From: Deltaproteobacteria bacterium
Lineage (GTDB): Bacteria; Desulfobacterota; Desulfomonilia; UBA1062
Reading direction: 5' to 3'
Assembly: GCA_029547045.1 (NCBI GenBank)
Contig: JAKPQL010000065.1
Span: 23,402-87,401, forward strand
DNA: 64,000 nucleotides
Part shown: in pieces, positions 12,471 to 59,866 of the stretch
How the letters are laid out: each line of letters starts with the position of its first letter
Numbering within the stretch: position 1 is the stretch's first letter
Notes under the pieces: generated by a model
The model's database searches: none
What the model was told of the DNA's origin: nothing
Seen by the model: the letters and a program-made list of their open reading frames with translations, nothing else
Position numbers and translations under genes: made by a program

Positions 12471-14741
12471 ATGGAACGATTCGCCCATCTCCTGTTCCGC
12501 CTCCGGTACGCACTGTTCGGCCTGATCCTGGCCGTAACCGTGTTCTTCGGCCTGTCCATCCGGGTGGAGATGGACAACACCATCAGCTCGTGGTTCTCCC
12601 CCACAGACCCGGTCTCGGTGAGCTACCGGACCTTCCGGGACACCTTCGAGGGGAGCAGATACCTCATCGTTGCGGTGCGATCAGAGGACCTCTTCACCAC
12701 GCCGGTTCTCACATATCTCAAGCGCAAGACCCAGGATCTCAAAGAGATGACCCTGGTGAAGCACGCCTACAGCATGGCCAATGCCAACAAGATCCTGGGC
12801 ACTGAAGCGGGCATCGAGGTGAACCCCCTCCTGAAGGACGTGGACACCGCGGACGCCCGCACCATCAGGGAGCAGGCGCTCACCGACGAGCTCTTCGTGG
12901 GCAACCTGGTCTCGGAGAACGGGACGCTCGCCACCATCGTCCTGGTATTCGACGACATGAACGCCAGGACCACCACGGAGACCATCGCCCGGATCGAAGA
13001 CGTCATGGGCCAAGGCAGACCGGACGGCGTGCAGACCTTCCTGTCCGGCGACATCATGGTGAACAACGAGTTCAACAAGGTATCGGAGCAGAACGGGACC
13101 GTGCTCCCCATCATCGGCCTGCTGGTGGTCGTCGCCATCATCTTCTCCCTGTTCCGATCCGCGTGGAAGATCGCCATCGCGGTCTCGGTCATCGCGCTCA
13201 GCCTGTGCTGGACCATGGGGCTCTACTCCCTGCTGGGCTACACCTTCAACGCGCTCAGCGGCATGATCATGCCGCTCATCATCATCCTGTCGGTGTCCAA
13301 CACCATCCACATGATGGAGTACTACGACGAGGTGAGGGAGTCCTCCGGCAGGAGACGGGCCTACATCAACACGCTCACGTACATCACCGTGCCCTGTTTC
13401 AATACCGCCATCACCACGGCGTTCGGCCTCCTGTCCCTCACCACGAGCTCCATAAGCACGGTGCGGCACTTCGGGCTCGTGTCCGCGGCAGGGATCCTGT
13501 TCGCCTTCTTCATCTCGGTGTGCACCGTGCCCCTGCTCCTCACCTTCTCCCGCGCCACCCGGAGGGTCCCCCACCCGTTCTGGGGCCACCTCCTGGCCCT
13601 GGTGAACCGGGTGAATGAGCGGCACACCACGCTCATCCTCTTCATCACAGCCCTGGCGGTTGCCGTGGCCATCGGGGGCATCACCAGGCTCACCATCGAG
13701 ACGAACGAGCTCGAGTGGTTCCCGGACGACAGCGAGATGAATGTCAACGCCGAGATCCTGGACAAGGAGCTCTCGGGCATCGGCACCATGGAGGTCATCG
13801 TCGAGGGGGAACCGGAGGCCATGAAGCAGCCGGAGATCCTGGCACGCATGGACACGCTCAGCCGGGACATCCGGACCCTGCCACAGGTGAGGAAGGTCAT
13901 CTCGCTCGCCGATTACGTGAAGGCCCTGAACCGGGCCCTGAACGGCGGCGACCCGGAGGCCTACCGGGTCCCTGACTCAAGGGAGCTTATCGCCCAGGAG
14001 CTGCTGCTCTTCAGCTTCTCCGAGACCGGGACCGAGGAGCTGGAACGGATATCGAACAACGACTTCTCCAGGGCGAGGGTCTCGGTGAAGCTCTCCTACA
14101 GCAGCTCCGAGGAGGGAAGGAGGATCTCGGGCATCATCATGGACAAGGCCCGCAATGCCTATGCCGGCGTGGAAGGGGTGAAGCTGTCCATCACCGGGTC
14201 GTCGTACCTGCTGAGCATGCTGGACAAGTACATCGTGGAGAGCCAGATCCGGTCCATCACGCTCTCCTTCATCCTGGTCTTCGGCATCCTCTTCCTCATC
14301 CTGTGGTCAGTGAAGTTCGGCCTTCTCTCCATGCTCCCGAACATCATCCCCATCGTGCTCATCCTGGGCATCATGGGGTGGATGGGGATCCACCTGAACG
14401 TGGGCACCGTGATGATCTCCTCCATCGCCCTGGGCATCGCGGTGGACGACACCATCCACATGATATCGCGCTTCCGGAAGGAGCACGCGGATGGGACCCA
14501 CACGGTGCACAGCGCCATGCGCCGCGCCACCATCATGGTGGGCAAGGCGGTCATCTTCACCTCGCTCATCAACATGGCCGGGTTCTCGGTGGTGGTGTTT
14601 TCCGACTTCCAGCCGTCCCGGGACTTCGGGTTCCTGCTGGCCGTGACCATGTTCATCGCCCTGCTCTGCGACCTGTTCTTCCTCACGTCGTGCATCCTGA
14701 AGGCCAGTCGCTTCATCGAGAAGACGCCGGCGCAGGGCTGA
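12471..14741 (+). CDS. MMPL/RND-superfamily (sterol-sensing domain, HpnN-like) exporter
   Basis: The 757-aa product has two 6-TM bundles, each preceded by a large periplasmic loop, in the usual MMPL topology. Confidence 0.8.
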   Translation: MERFAHLLFRLRYALFGLILAVTVFFGLSIRVEMDNTISSWFSPTDPVSVSYRTFRDTFEGSRYLIVAVRSEDLFTTPVLTYLKRKTQDLKEMTLVKHAYSMANANKILGTEAGIEVNPLLKDVDTADARTIREQALTDELFVGNLVSENGTLATIVLVFDDMNARTTTETIARIEDVMGQGRPDGVQTFLSGDIMVNNEFNKVSEQNGTVLPIIGLLVVVAIIFSLFRSAWKIAIAVSVIALSLCWTMGLYSLLGYTFNALSGMIMPLIIILSVSNTIHMMEYYDEVRESSGRRRAYINTLTYITVPCFNTAITTAFGLLSLTTSSISTVRHFGLVSAAGILFAFFISVCTVPLLLTFSRATRRVPHPFWGHLLALVNRVNERHTTLILFITALAVAVAIGGITRLTIETNELEWFPDDSEMNVNAEILDKELSGIGTMEVIVEGEPEAMKQPEILARMDTLSRDIRTLPQVRKVISLADYVKALNRALNGGDPEAYRVPDSRELIAQELLLFSFSETGTEELERISNNDFSRARVSVKLSYSSSEEGRRISGIIMDKARNAYAGVEGVKLSITGSSYLLSMLDKYIVESQIRSITLSFILVFGILFLILWSVKFGLLSMLPNIIPIVLILGIMGWMGIHLNVGTVMISSIALGIAVDDTIHMISRFRKEHADGTHTVHSAMRRATIMVGKAVIFTSLINMAGFSVVVFSDFQPSRDFGFLLAVTMFIALLCDLFFLTSCILKASRFIEKTPAQG

Positions 14742-14750
14742 AAAATCCCT

Positions 14751-16048
14751 CTAGAAAGGCCTCCCCGTGGCCATGTCTGCTTCAGCAGAAGCCTGGTGGG
14801 CCATGTCGATGGAACGCCCCAGGGTGTTCATGACCTGGGACGGGTTGTGGAAGCCCATGCCGTTCTCTGCGGCCACCACGTCCCAGAACCACTGGGCCCT
14901 GCGGATCAGTTCCCTGGCCTTCTCGAGGCGGGTCTTGTCCGCCGTCTGGATCGCAGCCGCCCTGGAGATGGTCTCGTGGGCCCTGGCCACGGTCTGACCG
15001 GCGATATGCTGGAGCTGCCAGCAGTTGTCCTGCACGGTCTTGACACGGTCCAGCAGCCACTTCTCGTCCTGGGTGTGGCAGGTCATGCAGGATGCCTGCA
15101 CATGCTTCAGCGGGCTCGTCACCCAGTGGGAGGAGTACTTCTGGCCCTTGTCCCGCATGAAGGGCATGTGGCAGTCGGCACATGCCACGCCGGATCTCGC
15201 GTGCACACCACCCGTGAAGGTCTCGAAGTCCGGGTGCTGGGCCTTGAGCATCCTGGCCCCGGAGTCGGGGTGGACCCAGTCCTGCTCGAAGCCGGCGGGC
15301 TTCTGTGCATAGTAGGAGTACATCTCTTCCGGCAGGTATCCCTTGTCCCAGGGAAACACCACTTTCTTGGAGGCGGGTTCGAAGTAGTACTCGCTGTGGC
15401 ACTGGCCGCAGACATAGCTGCGCATGTCCTGCCGTGAGGCCTTGCTCACGTCTATGCCCAGGCGCTCCATGGCCTCGATGAATGCCGGGTTCACCACGGT
15501 GAGCTTCATGGTCACCGGGTCGTGGCAGTTGGCGCAGGTGACGGGGTGCTTCACGCCAAGGAGGATGTCGGCCAGGGGCAGTTTCGCATATTCCCACCCC
15601 TTGTCCCTGTAGATGTCGGATCGGCTGTCTTGCAGGTCATGCACGCGCCGACGCTGGCTGGCGTGACCCTCCTGGTCTCCTTGAGGTCCTCCAGGGCATA
15701 GGGATGACCCCGGTCTTCGGCGTAATCCTTGCTGAAGGGCATGCCCTTGAAGTTCATGAGGATCTCCGGTTCCTTCACGGACTTCTGCACCTTCTCGCTG
15801 CCGCCGAAGCCCGTGGGTGACAGGGCCATGCCGCGGTTCTTCAGGTAGCTTGCGTATTGCAGCGTGTAGTGCTGACCCCACACGGCCGGGTCATGCTCAC
15901 CTGCCGGGATCCTTGCCAGCTTGATGGTGGTCTCGGGTCGAAGGAAGAAGGCCTGCGCCATGATGGCGGCAAAGAGAAAGGCAGCGAGCACTGCGACGGC
16001 CAGGACGATCTTTGTGTTCCTATTCAACGCTGATCCCTCCTTGTACAA
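14751..16048 (-). pseudogene. nrfA: Cytochrome c nitrite reductase NrfA (pentahaem), interrupted by a -1 frameshift near 15617
   Basis: The N-terminal frame (16048..15551) has a signal peptide and haem 1 'CMTCK'. The C-terminal frame (15881..14751) has CANCH, CGQCH, CADCH and CMTCH. One G missing in 'gtcggatc' separates ...CKTAD from DIYRDKGWEY; the native sequence was likely ...ADPDIYRDKGW. A sequencing error is possible. Confidence 0.8.
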
Positions 16049-16493
16049 GGCCGGTGCCGTGGATGAGGGCCCGGTGACAGTTCAGGCACGCGGTTCCCGG
16101 TGAAGCCATGAACGTGTTCTGCACGGTGGAGAAGTGGCACCGCAGGCAGTTTCCCTCCACGATGCCGCGCCCCTCATCGGAGAGCCGCAGGGAGGCGGGA
16201 TAGGATCTCAGGGTCTCGTGGTACAGGTCGTTGAGGCCGGCCCTTGTCTTGTAAGCGGCCTGCGCCACGAGATTGGAATCGGGCAGGTGGCATTCGATGC
16301 ACGCATACTGCTTGTGAAGGGACCGGCCCCATGTGTCTCCCACGTCCTTCATGCTGTGGCAGGCCGTGCAGAAGGCGGGATTGCCCGATGCGTGGTAGCC
16401 CGAGACCACCGCAGCACAGAAGACGACACCCACGACTACCCCTGCAGCGAGAATCCTGAGGGCCGGCGCTCGAAGTATATCACGATAGCCCAC
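16020..16493 (-). CDS. nrfH: NrfH, a tetrahaem NapC/NirT-family membrane quinol dehydrogenase
   Basis: The product has an N-terminal TM helix and four CxxCH motifs (CTACH, CIECH, CLRCH, CLNCH). Its 3' end overlaps the nrfA start by 29 nt. GGAGG lies 10 nt upstream of the GTG start. Confidence 0.85.
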   Translation of the reverse strand: MGYRDILRAPALRILAAGVVVGVVFCAAVVSGYHASGNPAFCTACHSMKDVGDTWGRSLHKQYACIECHLPDSNLVAQAAYKTRAGLNDLYHETLRSYPASLRLSDEGRGIVEGNCLRCHFSTVQNTFMASPGTACLNCHRALIHGTGLVQGGISVE

Positions 16494-16516
16494 GACTGAA
16501 GCCCCTCCTGCCTGAA

Positions 16517-16534
16517 CGAATGCTCACCATGCCA
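16517..16534 (-). promoter_or_regulatory. Possible sigma-54 promoter (TGGCAT-N5-GAGCAT) upstream of nrfHA
   Basis: On the minus strand the sequence reads cTGGCATggtgaGCATtc. GG and GC are spaced as in -24/-12 promoters, about 24 nt upstream of the nrfH start. Confidence 0.3.
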
Positions 16535-16584
16535 GAGAAACAGCGCACAGATGGAACCACCCTTTGGATATCAATATACCGTCC

Positions 16585-16596
16585 AGGGGGGGGGGG
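16585..16596. repeat. G12 (C12 on the minus strand) homopolymer tract about 90 nt upstream of nrfH
   Basis: Twelve consecutive G residues were read directly from the sequence. Confidence 0.9.
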
Positions 16597-16804
16597 GACT
16601 TTCAAGCTGTGCCTTGTCTGCTCATTATCCAGGACAGCGCGAATGTCCATGGTATACCCCCCTCCAGAGCCTTCTCAACTGCATGTTCTGTATTGGTTTT
16701 ATCGGAAAGTCATGCTATCTGGGTTCCAGTGGATTGAGCGTGCATCGATGATTCTCTCCGAGATGCAGCACGCCTTTGGCGGCCATGCAGGAAGGGGGCA
16801 TGGA

Positions 16805-17194
16805 GTGGAAAGCGGGGGAGGGAATAAGCAGGAGAAGATCTTCTACAGCAAGGGCAACGTCACGGTGACGAACGCCCGCTTCATCGTGTCGAAGCAGGTC
16901 TTTGCCATGAGAAACATCACCTCCATCAAGCTCGACGAAGACAAGCCCTCGCGCACCGTCCCGGCCTTCCTCATCCTCACGGGCATCGTCGGCCTGTTCT
17001 TCGGCAGGACCGTGGCGCCCTATGCCGCGTCGTGCATCGCCCTGGGCGCCGCCTGGTATGCCCTGCAGAAATCACAGTATCATGTGCTGATCACCTCGTC
17101 GTCCGGCGAGTCGAGGCCCCTGTCCAGCAAGAACAAGAAGTGGATCAAGAGCGTGGTGGCGGCCCTGAACGAATCCATCGTCCACCGGGGCTGA
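16805..17194 (+). CDS. Hypothetical small membrane protein with a PH-like N-terminus and one TM helix
   Basis: The sequence reads 'KIFYSKGNVTVTNARFIVSKQVFAMRNITSIKL...AFLILTGIVGLFFG...YHVLITSSSGE'. The GTG start has AGGAAGGGGG upstream, and the start is uncertain. The long ORF-finder extension back to 16520 looks spurious. Confidence 0.4.
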   Translation: MESGGGNKQEKIFYSKGNVTVTNARFIVSKQVFAMRNITSIKLDEDKPSRTVPAFLILTGIVGLFFGRTVAPYAASCIALGAAWYALQKSQYHVLITSSSGESRPLSSKNKKWIKSVVAALNESIVHRG

Positions 17195-17305
17195 GGAAGC
17201 AGGCAGATCCCCACGGGTTCAGGGCAGGCATACTGCCACTGCAGAAGGCCGGAGGAATCTCCGCAGAGACCCTCCGACCCGATACCCCAGGAAGACCTGT
17301 GCCCC

Positions 17306-17956
17306 TCAGTACCTCCAGCCCGAGGCGTAGGCGATCACGTTCATGACGACGGGCACCGCATAGAAGAAGAGCAGCAGAGAGATCTTGGCCTGCATGGTCT
17401 TGCGCGTGATCACCCAGATGGCGGCGCAGAAGAAGTGGAAGTACCCGATGAGGAAGATGAGCGGGATGCCCTTGGGCGAGAGGTACCAGTAGGGGTACTC
17501 CCAGACCAGGTGTCCACCGATGTTCAGCAGGCACTCCACGAACACGCAGAAGGCAGAGTACCCGATGGCCCAGAACCACATCTCCGGCAGGCCCAGGATC
17601 TTCACCTTCCTGCCCTCGGTGAGCGTGTGGTAGAAGATGATTCCCAGGATGGCGAACATGAACATGATCTCTATGTTCCAGCCAACCATGGTGCGCAGCG
17701 CCGTGTCCCCCGGCGTGGTCCAGAACGCGCTGCGCTGGGAGAAGTGCAGCACCCAGCCGTTCCAGGTCTCGTTGAAGAAGTCCACCCCGAAGATGGCAGC
17801 CCCGGAGAAGACAGCATCCCAGTTCCCGTTCTCCTTTGCCAGCTTGATCTCCTTGGTGTAGATGTAGAACACGATGGCCAGCAGCGGAATAACGTACCAC
17901 TTCACCATGCTCAGATCCCTGAGCCCGCTCAATGCCTGAACCGTTGCCTCTGTCAT
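17306..17956 (-). CDS. Integral membrane protein (uncharacterised, ~6 TM)
   Basis: The 216-aa product is hydrophobic and Trp/Phe-rich, with a GAGGGGG RBS. It lies immediately downstream of tetR. Confidence 0.6.
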   Translation of the reverse strand: MTEATVQALSGLRDLSMVKWYVIPLLAIVFYIYTKEIKLAKENGNWDAVFSGAAIFGVDFFNETWNGWVLHFSQRSAFWTTPGDTALRTMVGWNIEIMFMFAILGIIFYHTLTEGRKVKILGLPEMWFWAIGYSAFCVFVECLLNIGGHLVWEYPYWYLSPKGIPLIFLIGYFHFFCAAIWVITRKTMQAKISLLLFFYAVPVVMNVIAYASGWRY

Positions 17957-24181: not shown

Positions 24182-24190
24182 CCCCCCCCC
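24182..24190. repeat. C9 (G9 on the minus strand) homopolymer 5 nt upstream of the arsC start codon, acting as its SD-like sequence
   Basis: Nine consecutive C residues were read directly from the sequence. Confidence 0.9.
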
Positions 24191-41411: not shown

Positions 41412-41427
41412 TGGCACCCGGTTTGCT
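41412..41427 (+). promoter_or_regulatory. Sigma-54 promoter TGGCAC-N5-TTGCT upstream of amtB-glnK
   Basis: The sequence is an exact -24 GG / -12 GC consensus with correct spacing, about 45 nt upstream of the amtB ATG. Confidence 0.6.
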
Positions 41428-41471: not shown

Positions 41472-43060
<1,589 letters not shown>

Positions 43061-53859: not shown

Positions 53860-54019
53860 AGCTGTGCCATACGTGACATTTCCACATCATTCCAACATTA
53901 TTGACGTTTTATTTCGCGATACCGACGACCTGCCCATATTTCGTCAGCATGTGCCCAAATGTTGTCTTGCCTCCGCGGAGGAAGGGGGTTATACCGGGAG
54001 AACGCCCGGGGGGTTCATC

Positions 54020-57000
54020 ATGGCAGACCTGAAGACCAGACACTGGGAGACCCTGGCACTGCTCAGGGCAGTCGGGGAACCTGCGGATTCAGACCTCGTG
54101 TCTGCCCTTGTCCCGCTGAGCCCCACAGAGCTGCAGGATTTTCTGCGCGCCGGGTTTGACGCTGGCCTCGTGCTCATCCATTCCGACGGCCGCATCGCAC
54201 TGACACGGGACCTGCCTCACGAGGTCATCCGGAAGCTGACCCGCATCACCACCAGGGAGCACCTCTCGGGGCTCATCGAGAGGATACGGCGGCTCGGGTT
54301 GCAGGAGAGCCTGCCCGGCCGCGCACTTGTCTCGCTCCTGGCGAAGGCTGGCCGCGACCACGAGGCCGCCGTGTTCGCCGGGGAATCGGCCCGGAGGTGC
54401 GTCCGCACCGGAGACAAGCAGGAGGCCCTGGACCTCCTGGAGACTGCCCTGGCGCTGGCAGGTCCGCATATCGGAAGGCCCGAGTGGGACCCGCTCTTTC
54501 TTGGCACGGCAAACGAGCTGTGCCGCCTGCGGCTCAACCTCACCCGGGACATCCACGGCATCCCCGCGATCCTCGAGCAGGCCTACCCTGTTGCCGAACG
54601 GCTCGGCGACCGCAGGACGCTCGCCCGCTGTGACCTTGTCATGGGACTGTACCGCTACATCATCGGCCGTACCGCCGAAGGACTCGGACTCATCGCCTCG
54701 GGGCTCGATCAGGCCCGGGCACTGGGAGACGATGACATCATGGCCGCCTCGGCCGAGTTCAGGGGCATCTACTACTACCTTCAGGGCATGTACAAGGAGG
54801 CCGTGGACAGCTTCGAGGCCGTGGTGCGCCTCGCCGGGAAGGCGCCCACCTTCCTCCCCGAGCACCTGGCGTCGTCTTCGGCCCTGGGCTACTGCTGCGC
54901 CCTGCTGGGACAGTACCACCGCGCCGTGGGCGTACTCGACTCCCACTGGCGCAGGTCAAAAATGACCGGGAACGACCGCAACACCTGCTTCTTCGAGGCC
55001 CTGCTCGGCATCGTGCTCATCATCATGGGGCGGAGGGAAGAGGCGCACGAGCACCTCCTCTGCGCCCTCAGGGAGGCCGAGGAAAACGGCAATGTCCCTG
55101 CCCTGCATGTGGTCCAGAAGGGGCTCGCCTACTACAGCTACTTCGAGGGCGACCTCGAGGAGGCATACCGGATCACCAGGGACACGGTCTACGCCGAGGC
55201 CATCGGACCCCAGTACAACTGGCCCGTCACCCTGGAGATGCTCCATGCCTTCCAGGCCAGGGGCCTTCCGCCCATCCCCTCCTTCGGCTTCGAGGAGGAG
55301 ATGGCGCGCGTCCTGTCCGGGCCCAACATCCACCTGCGGGGGGTGGCGCTTCGTCTGCGCGCCCTCCAGGCCCGCAGCAGGGACGAGGGCCCGGAGGTGG
55401 TGCTCCAGCTCCTGGAGGCCAGCGAGGCCGACCTGCTCAGGACCGGCGACACCATCGAGCTCGCCAAGACCCGCGCCGAGATGGCACGGGTTAAGCTCAC
55501 ACAGCGAGACCGCGCCGCTGCCCGCAACCTTGCCCTCATGGCATGGGAAGGACTGGGGGGATATGGCAGGGATTTCTTTCCGCACGATCTCACGTCCCTC
55601 CTGGGCACAGGCGCCACGAACAGGGTCCCGCCACGAAGGAAGGACCTCATGGACCGCTTCATGGATCTCCTGGACGAGTTTGTGCCCAGTACGGACCTCG
55701 ATGAGCTCCTCGCCCGCCTCGTATCGGCCGCGGGCAGGTTCTTCGGCGCCGAGCGCGGCGGTCTGTTCTGGTTTTCCGGTCCGAAGGAGACGGCCAGGCC
55801 GGTGCTGAGGGCCTCGTTCAACCTCGACAGGGCAGAGGTCTTCTCCGAAGATTTCCGTTCAACACTGGGGCTCATATTCAAGGTCTTCCGGAACGCCGAA
55901 CCGCTGGTGATCCGCCCGTCCGGCGACTCCCGCGGCGCCGTGAAGCACCAGACCCTGGCCGTCATCTGCCTGCCCGTGGTGGTCTCCAGCGAGGTGGCCG
56001 GGGTGCTGTACCTGGACAACACCTACCTCAACCCTGCGGGCGAAGTCATCGACCGGGACGTGGTGGTCAGGGTGGCCCGCCACATCAGCGTCTCCATCGA
56101 ACGTATCCTCCACTACACCGCCATGATGGACGCCCACACCTCTCGGTTCTCTTCAGCCCATGTCATGGAGGAGGGCGCGTCTGTGCCGGGAGATATCCTC
56201 GGGCACAGCCCGGTCATAACCGCGCTGCTCGCCCAGGCAGACCAGGCCGCCGGCACCGACGCCACTGTGCTCATCACCGGGGAGACGGGCTCAGGCAAGG
56301 AACTCCTGGCCCGCAGGATCCACGACATGGGGAAGCGCAAGGCCGGACCCTTCGTCGTGGTGGATCTGGCCGCAGTGCCTGAAGCGCTGGTGGAGAGCGA
56401 ACTCTTCGGCCACGAGAAAGGCGCCTTCACGGGCGCAGACCGCCAGAAGCAGGGCAGGGTCGAGCTGGCTCACACTGGAACGCTCTTCATCGACGAGATC
56501 GGCGACGTGCCCCCGTCGGTCCAGGTGAAGCTGCTGGGTGCTCCAGGAGAAGAGCTTCACCCGCGTGGGCGGAACCCGCGCCATGGTATCCGATTTCCGG
56601 CTCGTGGCCGCCACCAACCGCGACCTGAAAAAGGACATGGAAGACGGCCGCTTCCGTCAGGACCTCTACTTCAGGCTCAACGTGGTGCCGCTGGTTCTTC
56701 CTCCGCTGCGCGAACGCGGATCCGACGTGGTGCTCCTGGCGCGGGAGTTCCTTGGCCAGTATGCCAGGAAATACCACCGGTCCCTGCCCGACCTCTTGGA
56801 CGAGGACATCCGGGCGATCACGACCTACCCATGGCCTGGAAACGTGCGGGAGCTGAAAAATGTGATGGAGCGCGCCGCCATCCTCTCCTCACCGGAGAGG
56901 CTGCTGCTGAACCTGCCCCTTCCCCCGGCCAGTGGCCGGGAACCCCAGTTCACGGACAGGCCCACCATGGACGAGCTCCAGCGCCGGTACATCACCCATG

Positions 57001-57110
57001 TGCTCGGCATCACGGGTGGACGCATCGGCGGGCCCGGGGGCGCGGCCAGGATCCTGGGCATGAAACGCACCACGCTGCAGGCGCGGATGAGGAAACTCGG
57101 GATCACCTGA
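54020..57110 (+). pseudogene. Sigma-54-dependent transcriptional activator with a large N-terminal helical-repeat domain, GAF domain, AAA+ sigma-54 domain and Fis-type HTH; frame disrupted near 56538
   Basis: Frame A carries '...[15 protein letters not shown]...GAFTGA...[16 protein letters not shown]' and frame B continues '(R)[13 protein letters not shown]...[13 protein letters not shown]...[13 protein letters not shown]'. The conserved LLRVLQE motif is reduced to 'ctgctgg|gtgctc', which implies a net 2-nt loss. A sequencing error is possible. Confidence 0.8.
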
Positions 57111-58780: not shown

Positions 58781-59866
58781 ATGAAGATCGGACTCATCGG
58801 ACTTAAGAAATCTGGCAAGACCACCATATTCAACGCGCTCACGGGCATGGACATCACCACTGACCAGTACTCGGCCTCCAAGGACGAGCCCAACATCGCG
58901 TCCGTGCGGGTGAGTGATCCCCGCATCACGGCGCTGAGCGAGATGTACCGGCCGAAGAAGACCACCTATGCCACGCTGGAGTGCATGGACTTCGGCGGGT
59001 TCAAGGACAGTCAGGGCGGCGAACGGAAGGAGATCTTCTCGGGCACGGAGCTGGGCCTCATCAAGACCGTGGACGCCCTGGGGCTGGTGGTGAGGAACTT
59101 CCACGACCAGTACATCGACAGCGTGCTCGGGGAGCCGGACCCCTTCTCGGACATCGACACCGTCCTGTCCGAGCTCATCCTGGCCGACCTCATCGTGGCC
59201 GAGACGAGGCTCGAGCGGATCAATCACCAGATCCAGCGTGGGACAAAGACACCCGCCCTGGAGCTCGAACGCGACGCCCTGGCCAGAATCCATGCCTTCC
59301 TCGAGCAGGGCGACGTCGCGGTCCCGCCCGAGCTCACCGCTGACGAGGACAAGGCCGTGCGCGGCTTCCGTTTCCTGACGCTCAAGCCCATAATCGTGAT
59401 CCTCAACTCCGACGAGTCCACCTTCGGCCGCAGCACCGAGCTCCTGGGCATGATCTGGAAGCGCTTCTGCGGCATCGAGTTCGCCGGCCAGTTCGAGATG
59501 GAGCTGAACCGGCTCGAGCGGGACGAGGCGAAGGCGTTCATGGACGACATGGGCATCGGCACGTCTGCCCGGGAACGCCTCACCATGGCCGCCTATGAAC
59601 TCCTTGGCTACATCTCCTTCTTCACCGTGGGCGCCGACGAGGTGCGGGCCTGGACCATCCGCAGGGGGGGGACGGCCGTGGACGCGGCCGGGGCAATCCA
59701 TTCAGACCTGGCCCGGGGGTTCATCCGGGCCGAGTGCTTCGCCTACGACGACCTCATGACCCATGGCTCGGAAAAGGCCCTCAGGGACAAGGGGCTGATC
59801 CGGCTCGAGGGCAAGACCTACCCGGTGAGGGACGGGGACATCCTGTCCATCCGCTTCAACACGTAG
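58781..59866 (+). CDS. ychF: Redox-regulated ATPase YchF (Obg-family GTPase fold)
   Basis: The G1 motif is 'IGLIGLKKSGKTTIFNALT' and the C-terminal TGS domain carries 'RAWTIRRG'. Confidence 0.9.
   Translation: MKIGLIGLKKSGKTTIFNALTGMDITTDQYSASKDEPNIASVRVSDPRITALSEMYRPKKTTYATLECMDFGGFKDSQGGERKEIFSGTELGLIKTVDALGLVVRNFHDQYIDSVLGEPDPFSDIDTVLSELILADLIVAETRLERINHQIQRGTKTPALELERDALARIHAFLEQGDVAVPPELTADEDKAVRGFRFLTLKPIIVILNSDESTFGRSTELLGMIWKRFCGIEFAGQFEMELNRLERDEAKAFMDDMGIGTSARERLTMAAYELLGYISFFTVGADEVRAWTIRRGGTAVDAAGAIHSDLARGFIRAECFAYDDLMTHGSEKALRDKGLIRLEGKTYPVRDGDILSIRFNT

Follow-up and report, generated by a model that had tools for sequence, protein, structure and literature searches.

The operon considered here, nrfHA, lies on the minus strand of a 64,000-nucleotide (nt) stretch of DNA from a Deltaproteobacteria bacterium (GenBank assembly GCA_029547045.1, contig JAKPQL010000065.1, positions 23,402 to 87,401), which was analyzed as a whole and is hereafter called the window; coordinates are counted from its first letter. 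By its Pfam assignments, its matches to solved structures, and its heme motifs, the locus is recognizable as an operon that pairs a membrane quinol dehydrogenase, NrfH, with a periplasmic pentaheme nitrite reductase, NrfA. Two of its features, a small deletion within nrfA and a long homopolymer within the predicted promoter of nrfH, are the principal concern of this analysis. The features of the locus are as follows.

14751–15617, minus strand: C-terminal part of nrfA, 288 codons plus stop in the -1 frame, with four CxxCH motifs
15551–16027, minus strand: N-terminal fragment of nrfA, with a TTG start, a signal-peptide-like segment ending in AQA, and CMTCK (heme 1)
15615–15622, minus strand: site of a 4-nt deletion in nrfA, reading GATC/CGAC, with the junction between 15619 and 15618
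16020–16493, minus strand: nrfH, intact, 157 amino acids (aa), with a GTG start; tetraheme NapC/NirT-type quinol dehydrogenase subunit
16509–16504, minus strand: AGGAGG, ribosome-binding site of nrfH
16520–16534, minus strand: TGGCATGGTGAGCAT, that is, TGGCAT-N3-GAGCAT, in the conserved 5′ leader; described in the initial annotation of this DNA as sigma-54-like
16573–16578, minus strand: TATATT, -10-like hexamer of the predicted sigma-70-type nrfH promoter
16586–16597: G12 on the plus strand, C12 on the nrf sense strand, inside the promoter spacer
16600–16605, minus strand: TTGAAA, -35-like hexamer of the predicted sigma-70-type nrfH promoter
16748–17194, plus strand: divergent neighbor encoding a DUF6232 protein; start uncertain, Pfam domain from about 16859

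The assignment of both genes draws on several independent features. NrfH carries four CxxCH heme motifs (CTACH, CIECH, CLRCH, and CLNCH) and an N-terminal membrane helix, is encoded directly upstream of nrfA, and is recognized by its family profile (PF03264, 52 bits; TIGR03153, 106 bits, under its cut-off of 134). Its sole match in the PDB is the NrfH of Desulfovibrio vulgaris (2J7A_C, E 5.6e-20). The TTG start of nrfA at 16027 overlaps the nrfH stop, and the two parts of nrfA together supply the full heme set of the family, CMTCK followed by CANCH, CGQCH, CADCH, and CMTCH. Once its frame is repaired, NrfA scores 399 bits against PF02335 (cut-off 24) and finds its best PDB matches in 1OAH, 2VR0, and 2J7A (E 5e-74 to 5e-71). 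It scores below the NCBIfam equivalog cut-offs (NF008339, 301 vs. 595; TIGR03152, 231 vs. 692.5), models that were built on the longer enterobacterial NrfA type; intact orthologues of the present clade are still named NrfA by NCBI. Every motif listed in the initial annotation, namely four CxxCH in nrfH and, in nrfA, CxxCK, four CxxCH, and a signal peptide (here a signal-peptide-like N-terminus), was recovered. What the locus does not encode is NrfA as one uninterrupted, exported polypeptide: there are two fragments, of 158 aa and at least 267 aa, and nrfA is here a pseudogene of the NrfA family.

The NrfHA complexes of D. vulgaris and D. desulfuricans (2J7A, 2VR0, 1OAH) offer a known system for comparison. 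They likewise derive from a two-gene nrfH–nrfA operon, with an NrfH of four CxxCH motifs and an N-terminal membrane helix, and an NrfA of one CxxCK and four CxxCH motifs. In contrast, the nrfA studied here is broken by a 4-nt deletion, belongs to a shorter, Syntrophales-type clade (about 426 aa vs. 500–524 aa), falls under the equivalog cut-offs, and has neither an adjacent nrfSR pair nor a sigma-54 promoter. The host itself is not a Desulfovibrio. The genomic relatives closest to its NrfA, none above 75% identity, come from uncultured Thermodesulfobacteriota, Syntrophales, and Syntrophorhabdaceae metagenome-assembled genomes, and NCBI labels the exact nrfA fragments "Deltaproteobacteria bacterium"; both observations point to an uncultured, Thermodesulfobacteriota-type anaerobe. 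No genome of the present species was found in a scan of a genome collection, in which the nearest NrfA was 75% identical.

The break in nrfA lies at 15615–15622, where the plus strand reads GTCGGATC and the coding sequence is split over two frames. Past the deletion, the N-terminal fragment continues for 21 out-of-frame codons to a TGA stop, and the C-terminal part retains every conserved NrfA residue without a signal peptide of its own. The nature of the lesion is best seen against sister-lineage contigs (L092–L095), which were obtained through protein clusters, a 297-aa member (P0121) leading to L092. Over 1848 nt, L092 and the window share 92.7% nucleotide identity with a single gap, which is 4 nt long and falls exactly at the lesion: GCC AAT CTC ATC GAC ATC TAC in L092 is aligned with GCC GAT C----C GAC ATC TAC in the window. 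This lone gap, which coincides with the lesion, identifies it as a 4-nt deletion. The missing TCAT lies three codons past the CxxCK active-site heme motif, where orthologues read CMTCKTAN[LMI]IDIY. Five residues separate CxxCK from D[IV][YF] in all 99 of the orthologues that matched the motif search. The initial annotation had proposed that a single G was missing and had recommended comparison with nrfA of close relatives. That comparison does find the relatives unbroken at this site, but the deficit it reveals is one of 4 nt; a 1-nt repair would leave only four residues in the loop, one short of every orthologue.

The consequences of the deletion follow from its position. It parts an exported N-terminal segment of 137 residues from the remaining 288, which hold four hemes and the catalytic and Ca-site residues. 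In the maturation of c-type cytochromes, heme cannot be attached to a fragment that lacks a signal peptide. The C-terminal fragment has none and so could not receive its hemes, and we infer that no mature, functional nitrite reductase can form from the broken gene.

Several measures indicate that the break is young compared with the split from the sister lineages. Ratios of nonsynonymous to synonymous substitution rates (dN/dS) between the window and the sister contigs are 0.21 for the C-terminal and 0.15 for the N-terminal part of nrfA, which is like the neighboring genes (nrfH 0.21, MMPL 0.24, DUF6232 0.34, AF_1327 0.09, TetR 0.16). The window NrfA has four private substitutions at positions that are at least 95% conserved among 116 orthologues, compared with an average of 2.2, and at most 11, for the others. 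Beyond the deletion, nrfA has no additional stops or indels. With a dN/dS in keeping with its surroundings, few private substitutions, and no further damage, the gene was broken recently on this scale.

The same lesion recurs well beyond the window. When NrfH and the N-terminal NrfA fragment were looked up by exact sequence, contigs were recovered from at least five JGI samples and four ENA assemblies (ERZ761562, ERZ27257438, ERZ773284, and ERZ27257440; JGI 3300010342, 3300009689, 3300010345, 3300009769, and 3300025720), and an identical lesion is present in eight further distinct contigs, or nine locus records (L001, L002/L082, L079, L080, L081, L083, L084, and L085), all of which read TGCAAGACAGCCGATCCGACATC. 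L002 and L082 are one contig, and some of the other records may be re-assemblies of shared data. Two assemblers, SPAdes and MEGAHIT, are represented. Four of the records extend over both fragments, and in each of these gene prediction yields separate nrfA products of 158 and 267 aa. One record requires separate comment. L084 (JGI 3300009769) was considered as a diverged strain, 96.7% identical and carrying the same frameshift; this was rejected, all of its differences lying within the last 220 nt. The contig follows the window without a mismatch until, in the region of about positions 1260–1483 (window 15234–15017), it changes to sequence of about 78% identity. Because the differences cluster in this way, L084 is a chimeric contig that joins the nrfA genes of two species in a conserved stretch, and it was set aside.

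The second feature of interest lies upstream of nrfH, where the nrf strand reads TTGAAA-GT-C12-TGGACGG-TATATT. This is the best sigma-70-type site in the region, with five of six matches at both hexamers; the simulated chance that hexamers matching this well would flank the tract is about 0.0016. The spacer measures 21 nt, or 20 nt where the tract is C11. Base composition alone would give about 0.08 G12 runs per 64 kilobases (kb), a figure from simple arithmetic, and is not decisive. The sister lineages are more informative. L093 has TTGCAT-GTCCCTCCCACGGACAG-TATATT and L095 has TTGAAT-GTGCCCTTTATGGACAG-TATACT, each with a 17-nt, non-homopolymeric spacer, and the alignment to the window opens a 4-nt gap exactly at the tract. 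Since the sisters keep both hexamers at a 17-nt spacing and the gap falls at the tract, the run represents a lineage-specific homopolymerization and expansion of a C-rich spacer. At 11 more distant orthologous loci, TTGAC[TAC] occurs 65–107 nt upstream of the nrfH start and is followed, mostly after 16–17 nt, by a TA-rich hexamer; two are poorer fits, L015 with a spacing of 19 nt and L035 with TAGTCT. On these grounds, the nrfH promoter is predicted to be of the sigma-70 type. Two other candidate elements were considered and set aside: a distal sigma-70-like site, TTGAGA-18-TACCAT at 16678–16649, which is weaker than the proximal one and lies away from the promoter position of the orthologues, and an FNR/CRP/HcpR-type site around TTGATATCCAA, downstream of the -10 hexamer, in which the half-site spacing is neither canonical nor conserved.

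Taken together, these observations make it likely that nrfHA has been recently inactivated, through two lineage-specific lesions that are absent from its closest relatives. The deletion of TCAT splits nrfA such that no functional nitrite reductase would be matured, and the C12 run stretches the predicted nrfH promoter spacer from 17 to 21 nt (20 in two assemblies), which would weaken or silence transcription. Sigma-70 promoters lose most of their activity with spacing beyond 18–19 nt; by this general rule, nrfHA would probably be transcribed weakly. The tract itself probably began as a C-rich spacer, of which CCCTCCCAC in a sister is an example, that turned into an uninterrupted run, which slippage then lengthened. 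Either of the two events, nrfA deletion or spacer expansion, would relax selection on the other.

A number of points weigh against this account and temper its scope. The contigs of the lineage are all 99.8–100% identical, and several of the samples apparently belong to one study series; what looks like a fixed lesion may therefore mean one clone in related reactors. The evidence consists of assembled contigs, such that a minority allele with an intact nrfA is conceivable, as is a second, divergent nrfA elsewhere in the genome. On the side of the promoter, both the assignment and the loss of strength are predicted. No clear consensus promoter is seen in L003, the closest genomic orthologue, and the RNA polymerase of the present phylum may differ from the general sigma-70 rule in its tolerance of 20–21-nt spacers.

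Among the competing explanations, the most durable holds that the tract is a working contingency switch, in which slipped-strand changes in its length alter the -35/-10 spacing and move nrfHA transcription up or down, and could possibly tune the divergent gene as well. Phase-variable promoter tracts of this kind are known from Neisseria meningitidis, in which porA carries a poly-G run between the -35 and -10 elements and opc a poly-C run, and from Haemophilus influenzae, in which TA repeats occupy the divergent promoter of hifA and hifB. The tract under study resembles these models in being a long G/C homopolymer between the -35 and -10 elements, in its divergent intergenic setting, and in an apparent one-unit length difference between independent samples. 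It differs in that its host is a free-living anaerobe and not a host-adapted pathogen, in that only 20- and 21-nt spacers are seen, and in that the operon is already a pseudogene and the sisters lack the tract; reversible switching is here a candidate reading. Titles on porA, opc, and hif phase variation are among the references listed in PMC5084427.

The behavior of the tract across assemblies speaks on both sides of this proposal. Its position is exactly that of a promoter spacer, both hexamers of which are kept by the sister lineages. The window, L002/L082, and L101 show a tract of 12 bases, whereas L001 and L083 show 11; apart from this, L083 matches the window over about 2 kb. Several contigs break at or near it: L081 begins at 16568, L101 stops at 16553, and a G6 run adjoins the ends of L099 (16641) and L100 (16657). 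However, next to the tract, at its contig end, L101 has four X-to-G mismatches, a typical poly-G sequencing artefact, and the difference between 11 and 12 may be technical. A spacing within the 16–18-nt optimum would require C7–C9, which none of the assemblies has. Switching would moreover control nothing useful, the downstream nrfA being frameshifted, and the sister lineages are without a homopolymer at this place. We therefore regard a working switch as unlikely. Further instances of the tract were sought: a metagenome scan for the tract with its flanks gave no match, though the pattern matches the window and four loci; a second, degenerate metagenome scan gave only three unrelated chance matches; and look-ups through the DUF6232 and AF_1327 proteins for tract-spanning contigs added L101 only. 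The G12 run that the initial annotation had reported is real, reaching one base past the end given for the region. Its description there as a slippage-prone regulatory tract is upheld in part, as it does sit in the spacer of a sigma-70-type promoter and does read 11 or 12 depending on the assembly. Its supposed kinship with the frameshift falls away, because the lesion in nrfA is not at a homopolymer and the two are unrelated.

An artefact of sequencing or assembly, with nrfA intact in the cell, would remove the coding lesion altogether. Some ground for this concern exists in the window itself, whose source assembly is not free of suspect sites. A second frameshift, a 2-nt deletion at 56535 on the plus strand (region 56530–56540), interrupts a sigma-54 activator gene at about 54000–57110 that encodes TPR, GAF, Sigma54_activat, and AAA_lid domains: the window reads CTGCT--GGGTG and two independent assemblies (L089/L090, that is, GCA_035419925.1, and L091) read CTGCTGCGGGTG, encoding an intact KLLRVLQE. 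Strain variation or a mistake in the source assembly of the window would account for this lesion. The two sites nonetheless behave differently. Samples ERZ773284 and ERZ27257440 have the nrfA lesion (L079 and L080) and lack the one at 56535 (L089 and L091); errors or variants private to the window are not common to other assemblies, whereas the nrfA lesion is, which argues that the latter is real. The nrfA site is also not homopolymeric, and when about 15 billion proteins were searched with the repaired NrfA, the matches above 76% identity were fragments of the broken allele, none of them full-length. With the same lesion in eight further distinct contigs under two assemblers, the frameshift is genuine, and an artefact is very improbable. 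Of the two possibilities that had originally been raised, a true frameshift and a read error, it is the former that is borne out.

A sigma-54 promoter served by an NrfS/NrfR-type activator would give nrfHA a different mode of control from the one preferred here. In Desulfovibrio, nrfHA is induced by the sigma-54-dependent NrfS–NrfR system, which is encoded divergently from it (PMC5701242; table in PMC12285233), and the initial annotation had extended this control to the present operon on the strength of a TGGCAT-N5-GAGCAT element. The operon is of the same type, a TGGCA motif does lie 35 nt upstream of the nrfH start codon, and the genome does use sigma-54: a scan with strict GG-N10-GC spacing recovers TGGCACCCGGTTTGCT at 41412–41427 on the plus strand, a consensus site that illustrates a true -24/-12 element in this genome and precedes by 45 nt the ATG (41472) of an amtB–glnK (P-II) pair at 41472–43060, and the window holds the activator gene described above. 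The element upstream of nrfH, however, has an N3 and not an N5 interval. TGGCATGGTGAGCAT thereby presents GG-N8-GC in place of the obligatory GG-N10-GC (TGGCAC-N5-TTGCW) and fails the strict-spacing scan. Nor is it conserved, as the element reads CGGCGTGGTGAGCAT in L094 and L095, with TGGCA changed. Correctly spaced sigma-54 sites of at least 9 of 12 matches are missing from 28 of 30 orthologous nrfH upstream regions, and the other two, from distant Veillonellaceae-type loci (L032 and L020), have weak 9-of-12 matches; orthologous promoters are instead of the sigma-70 type. No NrfS/NrfR pair adjoins nrfHA, the divergent gene encoding a DUF6232 protein, and the sole sigma-54 activator in the window lies 40 kb away, at about 54–57 kb, is of the TPR-GAF type rather than a response regulator, and is broken in this assembly. 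By its spacing and its lack of conservation, TGGCATGGTGAGCAT is not a sigma-54 promoter, and control of the Desulfovibrio kind is very unlikely.

Least credible of all is a rescue of nrfA as one protein by programmed -1 ribosomal frameshifting or other recoding at the break, for which one could cite that both frames are open over the junction and that the rest of the gene is undamaged with a dN/dS of 0.15–0.21, but against which stand the lack of any X XXY YYZ slippery heptamer from CMTCK to DIYRDKGW, where a -1 shift would be needed, a fold of the 121 nt around the site that is less stable than that of shuffled sequences (z = +1.7), an Rfam scan of 14600–17300 without a match, 116 orthologues and a sister lineage that are all unbroken, and the loop that a -1 slip would produce, one residue shorter than in every orthologue.

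The surroundings of the operon were also surveyed. Beyond the divergent DUF6232 gene lie the AF_1327 and TetR genes, and an MMPL gene is also nearby. The DUF6232 assignment (PF19744, 63 bits) covers residues 114–220 of the open reading frame (ORF) at 16520–17194, and the product is no regulator of the NrfS/NrfR kind. L099 and L100 show an indel polymorphism of 5 nt (GGGAG in a G-rich stretch) at 16818–16822. It falls within the 5′ portion of this ORF as annotated, for which gene callers give lengths of 129, 134, 148, 160, and 183 aa. Because of this indel, the true start probably lies downstream of it, near 16859 or so, and the nrfH–DUF6232 intergenic region may be about 340 nt long. Within the AF_1327-family gene, L001 differs from the window by five substitutions in 12 nt (17642–17653), with identical flanks, a cluster that could stem from a small recombination event or from misassembly at this spot. 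Elsewhere in the window, a C9 run at 24182–24190 (G9 on the minus strand) occupies the Shine-Dalgarno position of a low-molecular-weight phosphatase/ArsC-like gene (MDKARVLFLCTG...), 5 nt ahead of its ATG and within a divergent intergenic region. Further homopolymers are C8 at 2850–2857, which is intergenic, and G8 at 59664–59671, within ychF.

One of the sister contigs raises the question of whether the operon is failing in more than one lineage. In L093 (GCA_025490975.1, JAOQIB010109140.1), nrfH at 2261–2701 has an 18-nt in-frame deletion, aligned to about 16350–16367 of the window, that removes TACHSM and with it the first CxxCH heme motif; nrfH is intact in L094 and L095, which belong to the same clade. 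The deletion rests on one contig and may be an independent inactivation. If it is real, the operon would be undergoing independent loss within the clade. A more far-reaching proposition joins these strands, making the tract a hypermutable contingency locus that tunes a respiratory operon in a free-living, non-pathogenic anaerobe, in a clade that repeatedly sheds nitrite ammonification by small, independent lesions. We consider this combination improbable; were repeated shedding true, it would comprise the stretched promoter and the deletion in nrfA described above, together with the loss of an nrfH heme motif in a sister lineage.

These findings bear on how such loci are read in environmental sequence data. 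The two fragments of nrfA were deposited as HOS96237.1 (14751–15644) and HOS96238.1 (15551–16027), both under the name "ammonia-forming cytochrome c nitrite reductase subunit c552" and with no visible pseudogene flag in those names. With both fragments named as NrfA, gene-centric surveys would count this population as nitrite-ammonifying, a capability that it almost certainly does not have. Sister-lineage contigs reached through protein clusters provide a means of separating a real lesion from a read error and of displaying the ancestral sequence, in both cases without recourse to reads. A recently pseudogenized nrfHA with a homopolymer-expanded sigma-70 promoter is a fresh example of known phenomena. 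As such, the locus offers a view of gene loss at an early stage, in which a coding sequence that is otherwise pristine carries one small deletion behind a promoter spacer lengthened by a homopolymer.

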